A stretch of DNA of 64,000 nt from a virus (IMGVR_UViG_3300021399_000103:1-64000); one strand, 5' to 3'. Shown: positions 3,559 to 19,853, counted from the stretch's first letter. The notes: generated by a model not told the origin, from the sequence alone. Made by a program: numbers and translations.

Positions 3559-3653
3559 CTCAAGCGTCTAAATGGTGAGCTTTAGGTCAGCTCAAACCGC
3601 TCATGCGTCTTTTTGATTTCAGTCAAGAACTGATTTGCTTTAAACTTGACCAA

Positions 3654-3725
3654 TGCGCCCTGTGGGAGTTGAACCCACACTCCACCGATTAAGAGTCGGT
3701 TGCTTTACCATTAAGCTAAGGGCGC
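3654..3725 (-). tRNA. trnK: tRNA-Lys(CTT)
   Basis: Cloverleaf with GCGCCCT/AGGGCGC acceptor stem, TAGCTTAATGGTAAAGC D arm, ACCGA-CTCTTAA-TCGGT anticodon arm and GGTTCAACTCC T arm. No encoded CCA. Confidence 0.92.
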
Positions 3726-3753
3726 AAGAGGGAGGGGCTTTCGCCCCTTGCGA

Positions 3754-8094: not shown

Positions 8095-8321
8095 TTTTAT
8101 TACCTCTCTTTATTTACATTATTATTATAGCTTGTTTAAATTAAATGTCAATAGTTTTGGGAAAATTTTTTTCGGGAAATTTAAAAAAATTTTTTTAATT
8201 TTTTTGTTTTTTCCTCTTGACTTCTGGCTTCGTGCGTGGTATAATTTTCTGCCGTTAGCGGTGACTAACTCACTTGTGAATGTGATAACTTTCACAAACT
8301 TTCGCACAAAAAAAACAGAGG

Positions 8322-12267: not shown

Positions 12268-12357
12268 TTTGTATTTCCTCCTATTTCTTTTTACACTTAT
12301 ATAATAGCATCTTTATTTTTCTTGTCAATGCCTTTTTTAATTTTTTTTAGATTTTTT

Positions 12358-12434
12358 GATAAGCTCCTATGCAACTCCTATTGGATTGCAGGTCTGTCGC
12401 CCCTCGGCTATCCGACTCGCTCTCGGAGCTTATC
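12358..12434 (-). ncRNA. candidate small multi-branch RNA
   Basis: Perfect 10-bp closing stem GATAAGCTCC/GGAGCTTATC enclosing two hairpins; dedicated promoter; no ORF. Confidence 0.5.
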
Positions 12435-12676
12435 TCCCTTTATCTGTAATAATTATAGCAAATCCTCAGCGAATGTCAACACTTCTGAAGAAATTTTTTT
12501 AACAAATTTTAGTTAGTTAGCTTAAACTAACTTGTTAACTTGTGAATGTGATAACTTTCACAAACTCTGGTTAGTTTAAGCTAACTAACTTCATTGATTT
12601 AACGTGCTAAAGTTAGTTAGCCTAAACTAACTCAACTGACGCTTGTGAATTTTTTCACAAATGCTCCCGAAAAAAA

Positions 12677-12886
12677 TCAGGCTTGCCATTCGGCTACAGC
12701 CTGTCTGTACATCTCAGCCATTTTTGGAAACCCATGGCGATCAAGTTTTCTTGATTCGCACATAGCCCATTCAACGAACGGCCATTCGTCTTCCAGGAGA
12801 AGGCTCTCTTCGAGATCTTCCTGGTAGCAGTTCCAGATGTTGAGCATTACACGCTCATGGTAGTTCAATTCTTCGGCAAACATCAT
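12677..12886 (-). CDS. acidic protein, paralog of 13097-13312
   Basis: FAxELNxHExxMLNIW...AEWQA; ends in TGA. Confidence 0.75.
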   Translation of the reverse strand: MMFAEELNYHERVMLNIWNCYQEDLEESLLLEDEWPFVEWAMCESRKLDRHGFPKMAEMYRQAVAEWQA

Positions 12887-13096: not shown

Positions 13097-13312
13097 CTAG
13101 GCTTGCCATTCAGCTAATGCCATGCGGTAATCATCGGCGTATTCAGCCATGTCCTCAGATTCGTAGAACTCGATCTCGTCTCTGAGCCAATCAGCGAAGC
13201 CGTAATCCTCATCGACGTCATCGAGCAAGCCGTCGAAGCTAGCTGCCCAATACTCCATCCAGATGTTGAGCATTTTCTGCTCATGTGCGTTTAATTCAGC
13301 GAAACCTAACAT
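13097..13312 (-). CDS. very acidic protein (possible DNA mimic)
   Basis: About 30% D/E and aromatic-rich. Ends in TAG at the residue where its paralog ends in TGA. Confidence 0.75.
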   Translation of the reverse strand: MLGFAELNAHEQKMLNIWMEYWAASFDGLLDDVDEDYGFADWLRDEIEFYESEDMAEYADDYRMALAEWQA

Positions 13313-13573
13313 TTTTATTTCCTCCTATTTATCTTACACTTATTATTATAGTTATTTAGGTCTTGATGTCAACACTTCCGGCAAAAAAAATCACTTTTTT
13401 TCGCATTTTTTTTATTCACATTTTGAAAATGTTTTCATAAGTTTTACTAATAGATAGTTAGTTAGTCTAAACTAACTCGACAACTTTATAACTTTTACCT
13501 AGTTAGTTAGTCTAAACTAACTGCACTGAATCTTGTTCATTAACGCTTGTGAAAAAATTCACAAATTCACCCG

Positions 13574-13600
13574 TTAGCACTCAACCACTGAGAGTGCTAA
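13574..13600. promoter_or_regulatory. CIRCE element (HrcA operator)
   Basis: TTAGCACTC-AACCACTGA-GAGTGCTAA, exact consensus. Confidence 0.92.
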
Positions 13601-13905
13601 CGCACGGACTTTAATACATTAAAGTATTAAAGTTAGTTAGTCTAAACTAACTCTTCACCGCTTTAACGCACTAAAGTTAGTTAGCCTAAACTAACTGGTC
13701 GTACTTGTGAAAAAATTCACAAACTTTCCCGGCGAGTCACAAACATTCTCTGATTAGCTTGTGAATTTTTTCACAAATGAACCGCCCTGGCTCAGCCATT
13801 CCAAAAGAGAAACTTTGTGAAAAAATTCACAAATGAATAAGTTTTAATTATTCTTACTTTGTGAAAAAATTCACAAGTTCTCTCGCCTTGCCCAAGACCT
13901 GGCGA

Positions 13906-13932
13906 TTAGCACTCACTGCCTGCGAGTGCTAA
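13906..13932. promoter_or_regulatory. CIRCE element (HrcA operator)
   Basis: TTAGCACTC-ACTGCCTGC-GAGTGCTAA, exact consensus with a different spacer. Confidence 0.92.
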
Positions 13933-14094
13933 CACGCACATTCTAGCACACCTTACTCGATTTGTCAAGTGCTTTCGGGAATTTTTTATAAAAAATTTTT
14001 TTACAAATTTTTCTTGACTTTTTTGGTGGTGTGTGCTATACTGGCTAAACTTGCGCCGCCACACCCGCAGCCGGCGCAGGGACGCCTTTGTGGT

Positions 14095-15000
14095 GTAGCT
14101 GTAAGTAGTGTAAATATTAGTGTTGTGCTATTACTGTTACATTACTATCACTGTTGGTTATCTCTTCTCTTCTCTTCTTCTCTTGTTGTGCTATCTCTTA
14201 CTCTTGCTGTGTTGTCTATCTATCTATCTGTTAGTATGTATGTATACTGTTGTAGTATAGTATGTAGTACTACACTACTACTTATCTACTACCTACTGTC
14301 TACTACTACTACTACTGTTAGTACTGTTGTTAGTGTGTGTTATCTATCTATTTACTTATCTATCTATCTATCTATTACTGTTAATGTATGTATCATACTG
14401 TGTGTATAGTATAGTGTATGTATGTATACTATACTATGTGTGTAGTATACTGTGTGTATGTGTATAGTATAGTACATAGTATGTATAGTATAGTATAGTG
14501 TATAGTATACTATGTATGTATGTATTGTTATTATGTTGTATTGTTGTTGTTGTGTGTATGTCTTTGTGTGTGTTGTTGTTGTTGCTTGTGTGTTGTGTGT
14601 GTCTTTACTGTGTGTGTCTCTCTCCTTGCTGACGTCCTGCCTGGCCGTGCCCTCTGCCTCCCTGCCTGTGCCTCTCTTTGTGCTTACTTTGTTGGTTGAG
14701 TGTTTGGTTAGATGTGGTTATTATTATTACTATTATTTATTAATAATGTTGTGCGCTGACAGTGTCCTCTGTGCTGCGTGTAGGTTAGCTGTGTGCGCTT
14801 ACAGCAAGCCTTTGTGCTGCCTTGATGACCCAACGCCGCAACTCTCTTCTCTTCCTTGTTGCCTGCGTGTGTCTCTTACTACACTACCTTGTCATGCTGC
14901 TTGTGTATCTATTGCTTTGCGTGTATTATTACTTATTCTCTTGGTTGTGTGCGCGTCTTTACTGCGCACACGCTGTTGATTGCGTTAAGACTCTTTAAGG
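14095..15000. repeat. low-complexity strand-asymmetric microsatellite-like tract
   Basis: Imperfect (TATC)n, (CTA)n, (TATAG)n, (TGT)n and (TG)n runs. Confidence 0.85.
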
Positions 15001-15326: not shown

Positions 15327-15608
15327 CTATAATATTAACTTACTTCCCCCATCTTCCCAAGTTTCATTCAGCGCAACTACCCAATAAATCTTGCCATCTT
15401 CTTCCAAAATATGTAAGCAAGAATCCTCTGCCGACATATCTACCAATAAGCTACTACTTAACGCATTACTATCTAATCCATAATAACTTCTACTTGGATC
15501 TTGAAATATTAACGTTCCAGTAGGAACCACAATCTCTTTATCACTTACATGCCGATAGGGTATATTCAAATCTGCTAACAACTGATTAATCTTTTCTATT
15601 TTTTTCAT
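15327..15608 (-). CDS. hypothetical protein
   Basis: 93-aa ORF with AGGAG RBS. Confidence 0.6.
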   Translation of the reverse strand: MKKIEKINQLLADLNIPYRHVSDKEIVVPTGTLIFQDPSRSYYGLDSNALSSSLLVDMSAEDSCLHILEEDGKIYWVVALNETWEDGGSKLIL

Positions 15609-15648: not shown

Positions 15649-15678
15649 TTGACAAGTGTGAAAAAAATCTGGTATAAT
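15649..15678 (+). promoter_or_regulatory. sigmaA-type promoter at the start of the morphogenesis arm
   Basis: TTGACA-18-TATAAT with TGG immediately before the -10. Confidence 0.65.
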
Positions 15679-15709
15679 TACATTGTAAAAGCTTTGGAGG
15701 AAAGAATTA

Positions 15710-16786
15710 GTGACTAAATTAGATTATAGTTTGAACTCTCCAGAAGAAAGACTTCAAGTAGTAAATCAAATCTTAGAAGAAAACCCCGACCCAGATCCTT
15801 ACTACCTAGAAATCCTAGCCGATTATTTAGTCTTCTGTATGGAGAAAGAGGAGAAAAAGGAGAAAAAAATTCTTACCGAAAATCGCTTAGCTACAGTAAA
15901 TAAAAGAGAAACATCTTATGAAGGATTAGTCTCTCAATTTGAGAATGGAGAGGATGGCGTCTATAATATAACTAACAATGATAAACACGTAATATTTCAG
16001 CCAAAGATTTCAATAACAGCAAAAGATAGAAAAGACATACCAGAATTACAACAAACCGACGAATCAATAAAATTTTGAGATAATCAAGTGCGCCATTCGG
16101 AAGGCAAAGATGCGTTTATTGCGAAAAAGGCTCTTATCGAAACTCGTAAAGACCAATATGTAATAAAACAAGCTATGAAGCCACCTGTACAAGCTTCCCA
16201 CTTAGTCCACTCAGAACATCATATTGAGTTCCCTGAAGAAATCTCATTTGACGAGGAGGGATATCCAGTAGCTACGGGGGTATCTTTAATGAATCCTACA
16301 ATTTGTTCTATTATACTTTGTAACTACTCAAAATTAAAGGAACGTAGTTGAGGCGATTTTTTTAGTGATACTTGATATCTCATGGAAGAATTTGATAAAG
16401 TATCTATGCGCGCGCTCGCTAAGTATCCCCTCTATTACCGCATTGTAGAGTGTAAAATAGACGGACTTCAAAACGCAGAGATACGTGATATTTTAGAAGA
16501 AGAATTTGGTATTAAGCATAGCTTAGAATACATCTCATCTTTATGGCGTAAAAAAATTCCTGGCTTAATAGCCTCCGCCGCAGAAGATGAATATCTTGAT
16601 TCTTATTATCTAAATGAAGAAAAAGGCAAATATAAAAGATGCAGCCGTTGCGGCCAGATTAAATTGGCTCACAACAAGTATTTCAGTAAAAATAAAACCA
16701 GTAAAGATGGCTTTTATAGCATTTGTAAAGAATGTCGTAATAAAAAAGTTAAAAAAATTGAACCTCCTTCGGTCAGAAAACTTTAA
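15710..16786 (+). CDS. HTH + C-terminal Zn-finger protein (358 aa, TGA=Trp)
   Basis: Three track ORFs in one frame joined by TGA. CSRC...CKEC motif. Confidence 0.75.
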
Positions 16787-18080: not shown

Positions 18081-19853
18081 ATGGCTTTACAAGATTTACT
18101 AAGACTTTCACAAGACCATAAAAAGATTGGCCTTTCTGAGGAAAGAGTTGAAGCAATAAAGCCTCAAGTACGACAATATATAGCATTTTGGCGAGAGTAT
18201 CCAGATATGTTTGTGGATTTTCTGCAAACGGGAAGAGATGGGACAATTCCAGAGAATGGTCTCAAATTTTTCTTTTATCAACGAGTGTTCTTACGTGCGG
18301 CGATGCGATATAAATATGTATACATGGTATTCCCACGTGCGTATTCTAAATCATTCTTATCAGTGCTTGTATTAATGTGCCGCTGTGTGCTATACCCAAG
18401 AGCTAAATTATTTGTTACTTCTGGAGGTAAAGAACAGGCTGCGGGCATTGTTAAAGAGAAAGTAAACGAAATTTGTACTCTTGTTCCAGCTTTTGAAAGA
18501 GAACTGGATCGACGTCCTGGAAAAACAAGAGAAGGAAAAGATTACGTTTGCTATATGTTTAAGAATGGTTCATTCTTTGATAATATTGCGGCGAGTGAGA
18601 AATCAAGAGGTAAGAGACGTCATGGAGGATTAGTAGAAGAGTGCGTAGGCGTTGATGGAACGATCTTATCAGAAGTTATTATTCCAACAATGAACGTTTC
18701 AAGACTTTGTATGGATGGTTCAACACACCCAGAAGAAACATTAAATAAGAGTCAGATCTTCGTAACTACCGCAGGCTATAAAAACACCTTTGCTTATGAT
18801 AAGTTAATCCAGTTCTTAGTATGAATGGTGACAGAGCCTGAGAAAGCTATAATTATGGGTGGTACCTTCCGCATCCCTGTATTAACTGGACTATTGGATA
18901 AAACATTTATTCAAGACTTAAAACGAGATGGTACGTTTAATGAAGCTTCATTTGAACGTGAATATGAATCAAGATGAAGTGGAACGGTTGAAGATGCGTT
19001 CTTTAATGGAGAAGCATTTGATAGAAACCGCGCATTACAAAAACCGGAATATGAACATTCTGGACGTTCAAGTTTACAAAGCTATTATGTATTATCAATG
19101 GACGTTGCTAGAAAGAATACTGGTAAAGATGGATGTGATAGCGTTATAACTGTCTTTAAGGTAATTCCACAAAACTATGGAGAGGTTTCAATAAAATCTC
19201 TTGTTAATTTATATACATTAACCAATATGCATTTTGAAGACCAAGCTATTTGAGCAAAGCGTTTATTCTATAAATATAAAGCAAGACGTATTGTAATTGA
19301 TGCTAATGGTCTTGGTATTGGTTTAGTTGATTATATGGTAAAACGTCAAACAGATCCTCTAACTGGGGATGAATATCCTGATTTTGGAGTTGAAAATGAT
19401 GATGAAGGATACTACAAAAGATTTAAGACTGCGGATACTGAACAAGAAGCAATGTATTTAATAAAAGCAAATGCGCCGATTAATACAGAAGCACATTCTA
19501 ATGTTCAAACACAACTTACTTCTGGAAAATTAAAATTCTTAATTGACGAACGTGTTGCTAAAAATAAATTATTAGGAACACAAAAAGGAAAACAAATGAC
19601 ACCAGAAGAAAGGGCAGAGTACTTAAAACCATATACCTTAACTTCTATATTAAAAGAGGAGATGTTAAACCTTCGTGAAGAAAATGAAGGTATTAATATT
19701 ATTCTAAAACAAGCTAATCGTGGTATTAGAAAAGATAAATTTTCAGCTTTTGAATATGGATTATATTATATCAAACAAGTTGAAGATAGTAAGAAAAAGA
19801 AACGTAAAAGATTTAATGCGGCAGAATGAAGATTTAGTTCGCATATAGGATAA
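18081..19853 (+). CDS. terL: terminase large subunit (590 aa, TGA=Trp)
   Basis: Walker A-like PRAYSKS, Walker B GLVEE, TTAG motif; nuclease SMDVAR / IDANGLG / KDKFSA. Confidence 0.9.

Follow-up and report, generated by a model that had tools for sequence, protein, structure and literature searches.

We ask why a phage without a chaperone gene should carry, in a region that codes for nothing recognisable, two perfect copies of the CIRCE element, the same 9+9 inverted repeat that is found in the CIRCE/HrcA class-I operons (groESL, hrcA-grpE-dnaK) of Bacillota. The DNA under study (the window) is a stretch of 64,000 nucleotides at the start of a 176,419-bp IMG/VR virus record that is estimated to be 94% complete, and the source virus is a large phage of gut or rumen. 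The initial annotation of the window had suggested that the extra CIRCE copies titrate HrcA, and that one of them makes an early transcript responsive to heat. The features on which the argument depends are collected in Table 1.

Table 1. Positions of the elements, promoters and neighbouring features (window coordinates unless another handle is given; "." marks features given without a strand)
Feature	Position	Strand	Description
CIRCE-1	13906..13932	.	perfect TTAGCACTC-N9-GAGTGCTAA, 18/18; at about +1 of the minus-strand transcript
CIRCE-2	13574..13600	.	perfect, 18/18; 306 nt into the leader transcribed from P(-)
Non-coding operator hub and leader	13373..13939	-	ORF of at least 40 aa absent on the minus strand
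P(-), sigma-A-type promoter	13940..13968	-	TTGACA (13968-13963), 17 nt, TGcTAGAAT (TAGAAT 13945-13940)
Divergent plus-strand promoter	14014..14042	+	TTGACT-17-TGcTATACT; 86% identity to relative L101
71-aa early gene nearest to the hub on its left	13097..13372	-	own promoter TTGACA-16-TATAAT, 13372-13345
TTGTGAA-N4-TTCACAA boxes, perfect, in the hub	13547..13876	.	starts 13547, 13705, 13759, 13815, 13859
TTGTGAA-N4-TTCACAA boxes, perfect, outside the hub but within the early region	1241, 12042, 12643, 13012, 13059; G000 172834, 173409		
TTGTGAA/TTCACAA arms with 10-nt spacer	12540-12563, about 8274-8297		also in relatives
pal3, AGTTAGTT-N6-AACTAACT, 4 perfect in the hub	13456..13696	.	starts 13456, 13501, 13631, 13675
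pal3 family outside the hub	11996, 12511, 12569, 12611; G000 173540		
CIRCE-1 position in hub variants			perfect in window, L101, L235; decayed in L238/L253 (2 mismatches) and L227 (3)
CIRCE-2 position in hub variants			perfect in window, L238, L253, L227; decayed in L101 and L235 (1 mismatch each, different bases)
Perfect CtsR boxes on related phage contigs	L124 2629-2645, 2852-2868; L123 5957-5973		beside CIRCE and pal3
Further perfect CtsR boxes on related phage contigs, beside CIRCE and pal3	L223 1297-1313; L102 375-391; L023 11482-11498		

Two CIRCE elements in a non-coding hub

The first question is whether the two elements are what they appear to be. Both match the consensus at all 18 arm positions, as had been claimed. 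When up to three mismatches are allowed, the window contains these two elements and no others, and the same holds for the full 176,419-bp record at up to four mismatches. The expectation from shuffled sequence is 0.04 matches per window, and two or more matches are seen in 0 of 100 shuffles. The spacers (AACCACTGA and ACTGCCTGC) are alike at 4/9 positions, identity is about 50% over the 18 nt that follow the right arms, and 14/27 of the non-arm positions agree (repeat D6). Both chance and recent duplication had been called implausible; chance is indeed excluded and a recent copy is unlikely, but the sequences make it plausible that the two elements go back to an old duplication in which the arms were held constant.

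The elements belong to a hub of about 600 bp (13372-13968), which has leftward early genes on one side and rightward, TGA-recoded genes on the other. Two CIRCEs, five TTGTGAA-N4-TTCACAA boxes and four pal3 palindromes are interleaved in it and take up about 232 of 567 bp. At the right edge is P(-), a promoter that had been pointed out in the initial annotation and that is real: it scores 11/12, has the extended -10 TG in addition, and is the rightmost among the leftward early promoters. The gap between its -10 and the start of CIRCE-1 is 7 nt, and neither strand shows a promoter within 60 nt of CIRCE-2. No class-I heat-shock gene stands behind the CIRCEs. What follows P(-) is an ORF-free palindrome array of about 560 nt, in which an ORF of at least 40 aa is lacking, and then a gene with its own promoter. 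The idea of a heat-responsive outermost transcript is supported by the layout of promoter and CIRCE-1, but it finds no gene for these 560 nt, and the promoter-proximal CIRCE is decayed in some relatives.

Left of the hub, small minus-strand early genes are preceded by near-consensus sigma-A-type promoters (at 13372, 12947, 12479 and 12328). The protein of the first, 71 aa in length, has no Pfam match. Two of these genes, at 12677-12886 (-) and 13097-13312 (-), are paralogous, encoding 69 and 71 aa with no Pfam match for either; their 5' ends and upstream regions are 72% identical, which argues for tandem duplication of units composed of promoter, gene and palindrome. The consensus promoter at 12479-12452 leads into about 90 nt free of ORFs (12360-12452, -) that extend up to the promoter at 12328 and may represent a small RNA.

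Right of the hub, the plus-strand promoter that stands back-to-back with P(-) is conserved more strongly than the rest of the locus. The roughly 930 nt behind it (14043-14972, +) are ORF-poor, T/G-rich and of low complexity, with runs of TGTG, TATAG and CTATCTAT. They open on a GC-rich hairpin that is conserved in L101 at 86% identity (14050-14100), close with a terminator-like hairpin (14946-14972) and have no Rfam match. This stretch may encode a long non-coding RNA, or else serve as an origin or R-loop region, the minimum of the cumulative GC skew being at 14-16 kb. That the hub, near this skew minimum, is also a replication origin, with HrcA-gated transcription controlling initiation as Spo0A does in phi29, is a further speculation. 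Farther right, the gene at 15650-16786 (+) has three in-frame TGAs and yields 358 aa under code 4; it stands behind a perfect TTGACA-17-TATAAT promoter that overlaps the divergent promoter of a 93-aa gene (15327-15608, -). Recoding goes together here with an apparently early, host-type promoter, and homology to 80 relatives begins exactly at this gene.

We turn to the gene content of the record. With TGA read as sense, plus-strand ORFs reach 2,937 aa and the minus-strand replication genes (among them a Pol III-alpha-like polymerase, RecJ, NAD ligase and gyrase subunits) are unchanged. The tail proteins of 1200-2900 aa that had been taken as possible clients of the host chaperones are thus present under this recoding but absent without it. 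The recoding fits the 'Agate' phages of Borges et al. (bioRxiv 10.1101/2021.08.26.457843), the comparison being one of recoding only. The full record has 28 tRNAs and one tmRNA; an Rfam scan of the window gives one tRNA and nothing else. A tRNA-Lys(CTT) occurs twice outside the main tRNA block, once near either end of the record (window 3653-3726, -, and G000 166671-166744, -). Since genes of the early type are found at both ends, the record is probably cut inside the early region. GenBank phages give no match to the region by blastn or to the 557-aa ORF by tblastn.

The statement that no chaperone gene is nearby can be extended to the whole record: Pfam searches for HrcA, Cpn10, Cpn60 and HSP70 are all negative, and local tblastn with the HrcA, GrpE, GroES and GroEL of a candidate-host MAG gives no hit below E = 0.25. 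Neither HrcA nor Rex is found as a phage-encoded product in the record, and the sole regulator-like product noted in that search is a generic winged-helix protein of 116 aa. As the phage is without an HrcA homologue, a ligand of the CIRCEs must be a host factor.

Conservation of the hub among relatives

The next question is "are the two elements kept when the DNA around them changes?" The genome is hypervariable over its leftmost 15.6 kb. While 80 loci share a 247-aa protein (18081-18824) with the window, their homology runs only from about 15620 rightwards and the hub is almost always missing, so these loci are unusable as a conservation panel. The 71-aa early protein as a probe confirmed no relative. 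A DNA anchor is more useful: in IMG/VR it gives one true relative (L101) beside a chance match to a high-GC phage (L122), and of its 39 hits in metagenomes four are additional hub variants. The panel consists of L101 from IMG/VR and L227, L235, L238 and L253 from metagenomes, five contigs of which L238 and L253 are nearly identical, leaving four distinct relatives, a small sample.

When the window is compared with L101, CIRCE-1 has identical arms (18/18 positions), while the spacer agrees at 5/9, the adjacent flank at 19/40 and the stretch before the -10 at 4/7. The arms are likewise 18/18 identical in L235, and the flanks in the two relatives are at 47-57%. With a divergence of about 50%, the chance retention of these arms would be about 0.5^18. 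The CIRCE arms are hence conserved beyond their background, and from this alignment we take them to be selected sites.

The perfect copy is not always in the same place (Table 1), but all five distinct hub genomes, the window and four relatives, have at least one. The number of copies is two in the window phage and three in L101, and whole palindrome units are gained or lost from one hub relative to another. The promoter P(-) shows a mixed record: its -35 and the TGTGn are kept in six of six hub variants, and its -10 reads TAGAAT, TAAGCA, TACACT or TGTACT, with the poor TAAGCA in L101 and L235.

The exact 18/18 match, the retention under divergence, the recurrence with unrelated spacers and the lack of an HrcA in the phage together make host HrcA the likeliest ligand. 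We consider both CIRCEs to be genuine predicted sites kept by selection, and HrcA to be very probably the protein for which they are kept.

CIRCE and its neighbours in candidate hosts and other viruses

For comparison with bacterial operators we use an Acutalibacteraceae MAG (G001), which holds two contigs related to the phage and is hence a candidate host only. It encodes HrcA behind a canonical CIRCE. Six perfect CIRCEs are present in this MAG: two canonical, three on phage-like contigs (C68, C85) and one on contig C176. The hrcA-grpE operon has the order TTGACA-17-TAAATT, 9 nt, CIRCE, and the groES-groEL operon the order TTGCTT-17-TAAAAT, 4 nt, CIRCE. The 7 nt between P(-) and CIRCE-1 are inside this range, so that CIRCE-1 has a spacing similar to that of the hrcA and groES operators. 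In the family of G001, a perfect CIRCE is present in 58/61 genomes with a median of 2 per genome, and a reversed control gives 0; this agrees with the earlier expectation that hosts carry only a few CIRCEs.

The other palindromes in the hub are of more than one kind. The TTGTGAA-N4-TTCACAA box is the published consensus for Rex (PMC4162614) and is also CRP/FNR-like. The record has 12 perfect copies, all in the early region and none over a strong promoter. Rex is encoded by 47/61 genomes of the candidate host family. The perfect TTGTGAA-type site occurs in 0/61 of these genomes, as compared to 11/61 for a TTGTTAA type, a result that weakens the assignment of the boxes as host Rex sites. We keep the Rex label as a tentative one that is based on the motif, and the host of the phage may be outside the candidate family.

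The pal3 family has eight perfect copies genome-wide. These palindromes mostly lie directly past the stop codons of early genes, and up to 17 copies are seen in the relative L200. A search for the pal3 22-mer among 185,579 species genomes returns only two contigs, both phage-like and both in one MAG (G001). With the exact 22-mer confined to phage-like contigs, a host factor for pal3 is not supported, and the palindromes are probably sites of a phage-specific factor, as predicted from their distribution.

The two contigs of G001 that carry pal3 contain no Rex-type boxes, and Rex is not found in G001. The MAG does encode CtsR as well as HrcA, and its perfect CtsR boxes (RGTCAAA-NAN-RGTCAAA) are on phage-like contigs bearing pal3 in 4/4 cases. 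This correspondence between the motifs of the phage and the regulators of the host, for CtsR and HrcA, refers to one MAG (G001) and does not carry over neatly to the window phage with its Rex-type boxes. CtsR boxes are also seen on related phage contigs (Table 1). In another relative, locus L216 (1570-1660, from the complete 172-kb genome G062), three LacI-family-like palindromes ATGAAACGTTTCAT adjoin two tandem CIRCEs, and palindromes of the type TGTTACAATTGTAACA are close by in L216 and are present in L217.

How common is CIRCE in viral genomes? A search of phage genomes for the consensus had been proposed as a check, and it gives at least 112 loci in IMG/VR with the perfect consensus, against 0 for a reversed palindrome of the same composition. 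Among the loci listed (at least 112 in all), 53 are within 400 nt of a heat-shock gene, 20 are at locus edges and 37 are internal orphans, the heat-shock neighbours being GroES, Hsp20, HtpG, HrcA and ClpB, with DnaK and DnaJ outside the screen. A count of 87 orphan viral CIRCEs proved too high, many of them preceding hsp20, htpG or clpB, and was replaced by the 37 among the loci listed. About a dozen of the listed orphan loci are related to the window phage by tblastx. Among the listed loci, a promoter with CIRCE precedes an Hsp20 gene in 21 viral contigs and an HtpG gene in six (examples are L010, L031, L060, L067, L068, L097 and L120). These contigs have either phage-borne, HrcA-controlled chaperone genes or the host flanks of prophages.

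A -10 element ending 0-15 nt upstream of the site is found at 80% of the chaperone-linked CIRCEs, at 17% of the true-orphan ones (n=41 sites) and at 4.8% of random positions. Individual relatives show different arrangements. The complete genome G063 has a promoter, CIRCE, RBS and the ATG of a 105-aa gene in the canonical layout for control in cis; G062, also complete, has its two tandem CIRCEs beside other palindromes; and G065 has four tandem CIRCEs with 49-bp spacing upstream of a promoter. The genes adjoining CIRCE in relatives have no match in PHROGs or Pfam.

Possible roles of the phage-borne sites

What could HrcA sites do for this phage? Our leading answer, a tentative one, is that HrcA controls the leftward hub transcript in cis. 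What we observe are the elements themselves, their placement relative to the promoter and their retention under selection; from these we infer HrcA occupancy, repression and a role for the hub transcript. When GroEL is free, active HrcA would bind CIRCE-1 at the start site of P(-), and it would also bind CIRCE-2 farther along the same leader. CIRCE-1 would then block initiation and CIRCE-2 would be a roadblock to elongation. The hub transcript would be made only when HrcA is inactive, because of heat or because the synthesis of phage proteins, for instance, saturates the chaperones, and the phage would sense the protein-folding state of its host in a manner comparable to phi29 with Spo0A or GIL01 with LexA.

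This reading accounts well for CIRCE-1, which is at the canonical distance from a strong promoter, but less well for what P(-) transcribes, as the roughly 560 nt past it have no ORF and the first gene is under a consensus promoter of its own. The -35 and the extended -10 of P(-) are kept in all variants, and every variant's intact CIRCE is downstream of P(-), in a possible operator or roadblock position; against this, CIRCE-2 is promoterless, L238, L253 and L227 have 2-3 mismatches in the promoter-proximal site and only the distal one perfect, and the -10 is poor in L101 and L235. While G063 gives a textbook example of the cis layout in a relative, a promoter adjoins only 17% of the 41 true-orphan sites.

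Control in cis does not exclude a second role, and the two can both hold. As the phage genomes increase in number, they compete with the roughly two operators of the host for HrcA, so that some titration is expected alongside control in cis. In its full form this second reading, a strong rival that we rank after the first and regard as possible rather than probable, makes the sites a decoy: the replicated phage CIRCEs, in the hundreds, would outcompete the host's approximately two operators and derepress groESL and dnaK for a phage that has no chaperones. A decoy needs no promoter, which suits CIRCE-2; it would also tolerate a perfect copy whose position differs by relative as long as one is always present, and tandem CIRCEs, two to four in G062 and G065, that are upstream of or off promoters. 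The contrast between true-orphan and chaperone-linked viral sites in having a promoter (17% and 80%) points in the same direction, as does the low number of perfect CIRCEs in the host family (median 2 in 61 genomes). Phage-like contigs of G001 account for 3/6 of its perfect CIRCEs and 4/4 of its perfect CtsR boxes, and each host-type motif that can be recognised (CIRCE, CtsR box, Rex-type box) is a repressor operator. Against the decoy stands the stoichiometry: two sites per phage genome face a host median of 2, and an excess would arise only via replication. The hrcA gene is autoregulated, so that titration is buffered. The exact promoter-proximal position of CIRCE-1 is also left unexplained by a decoy.

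If the phage CIRCEs do act as a decoy, the adjacent palindrome arrays might sequester other repressors likewise. A wider proposal, which is doubtful in our view, is that the hub is a phage DNA sponge for several host repressors, by way of CIRCE, the Rex/CRP-type boxes and, in relatives, the CtsR boxes. If this is true, an array multiplied by replication would strip repressors off the chromosome and turn on the chaperone, protease and redox regulons to the advantage of the phage; it would be an anti-repressor strategy without a protein, with modules exchanged to fit the set of regulators in the host. Decoy arrays for transcription factors, synthetic or natural, have been described in engineered or eukaryotic settings (PMC7826281, PMC3322331), and the phage sites resemble them in that predicted binding sites of high affinity are repeated and might draw off a regulator. 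In the literature searched there is no phage-borne decoy for a host repressor, and this lack of a precedent counts against the decoy.

The palindromes could also work independently of HrcA, by forming hairpins in RNA or DNA or by binding a phage protein; this we consider improbable. They might stabilise the transcript at its 5' end, mark a site of processing, signal a pause or termination, or be recombination hot-spots at which hub modules are shuffled. The CIRCEs fold as RNA with -19.6 and -18.3 kcal/mol, and CIRCE-1 would be 5'-terminal in the transcript from P(-). In some related phages (L208, L106 and L112) the CIRCE is immediately past a terminator, and its palindrome is extended to stems of 12-21 bp with covarying flanks. 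The TTGTGAA/TTCACAA arms are found with 4- and 10-nt spacers alike, whole units are gained and lost, and the generic winged-helix protein could be the phage protein in question. A hairpin, however, leaves it unexplained why an 18/18 consensus for HrcA with unrelated loops is found in many phages, and why the reversed palindrome is absent from IMG/VR where CIRCE has at least 112 loci. The decaying copies in L101, L235 and L238, moreover, have mismatches without compensation.

It is very unlikely that the sites are a drifting relic, the promoter and CIRCE of a lost phage chaperone gene of the hsp20 or groES type. Heat-shock genes are within 400 nt of CIRCE at 53 of the at least 112 viral loci, so that phages or the ends of prophages do carry modules of this kind, and P(-) with CIRCE-1 and no gene behind it does resemble an orphaned promoter; but the arms are perfect where the flanks have diverged by about 50%, there are two copies in the window and three in L101 with at least one perfect in five of five distinct hub genomes, and tblastn finds no trace of a chaperone pseudogene. 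The least probable idea, that CIRCE is an attP core for integration at a host CIRCE, was dropped because the record, 94% complete, shows neither a tyrosine nor a serine recombinase, and it has two copies and a large replication module typical of virulent phage against it as well.

We compare the hub with the known systems that come nearest to it. The phage differs from the class-I operons in that it has no heat-shock gene, its second CIRCE is promoterless, and both are part of a non-coding hub with several kinds of palindromes. The virulent Bacillus phages phi29 and Nf have Spo0A boxes at early promoters, by which they read the physiology of the host (PMC2731898). The window phage, presumably also a virulent phage of Bacillota, likewise has sites of a host global regulator at an early promoter, here predicted from sequence, with the difference that HrcA is a sensor of proteostasis and Spo0A a regulator of sporulation. 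In phages of Alphaproteobacteria, clusters of CtrA sites occupy a large intergenic region and are discussed in terms of 'lytic deferment'; for CtrA, a response regulator with activating or repressing action, both binding and regulation have been demonstrated (PMC9437464). The hub is like these clusters in having high-quality sites for a host regulator in one large intergenic region and in recurring in related and unrelated phages. It is unlike them in that the sites are for a repressor, are only two, are mixed with other palindromes and are known as motifs in the DNA. Three features of such site clusters, a host-regulator consensus, clustering in an intergenic control region and conservation beyond background, are present here, the last in a small sample.

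For GIL01, LexA SOS boxes are described on the phage promoter P1 (PMC4551915), which is again an operator for a host repressor on a phage promoter. GIL01 differs from the window phage in being temperate, with LexA and the phage co-factor gp7 maintaining lysogeny; no partner comparable to gp7 has been found in the window phage. With phi29/Nf, the CtrA phages and GIL01, it is already established that phages have host-regulator sites in their own control regions. For CIRCE/HrcA sites in phage genomes without chaperone genes, we found no paper in the literature searched.

A phage without chaperones thus probably reads, or soaks up, the folding-stress sensor of its host. If HrcA binds the two sites, a lytic phage of gut Clostridia would be wired to a sensor of protein folding, a link on which we found no paper, and it would be added to the few virulent phages that use global regulators of the host, such as phi29 with Spo0A and the CtrA phages. 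The 37 orphan loci among the at least 112 IMG/VR loci listed, about a dozen of them in relatives, suggest that the case is not isolated. Should the decoy be true, it would represent a new class of host-takeover device that is made of DNA only. If HrcA binding holds, the sites would also offer a testable handle on folding capacity, or on the timing of the programme, in large phages that have no chaperones of their own.
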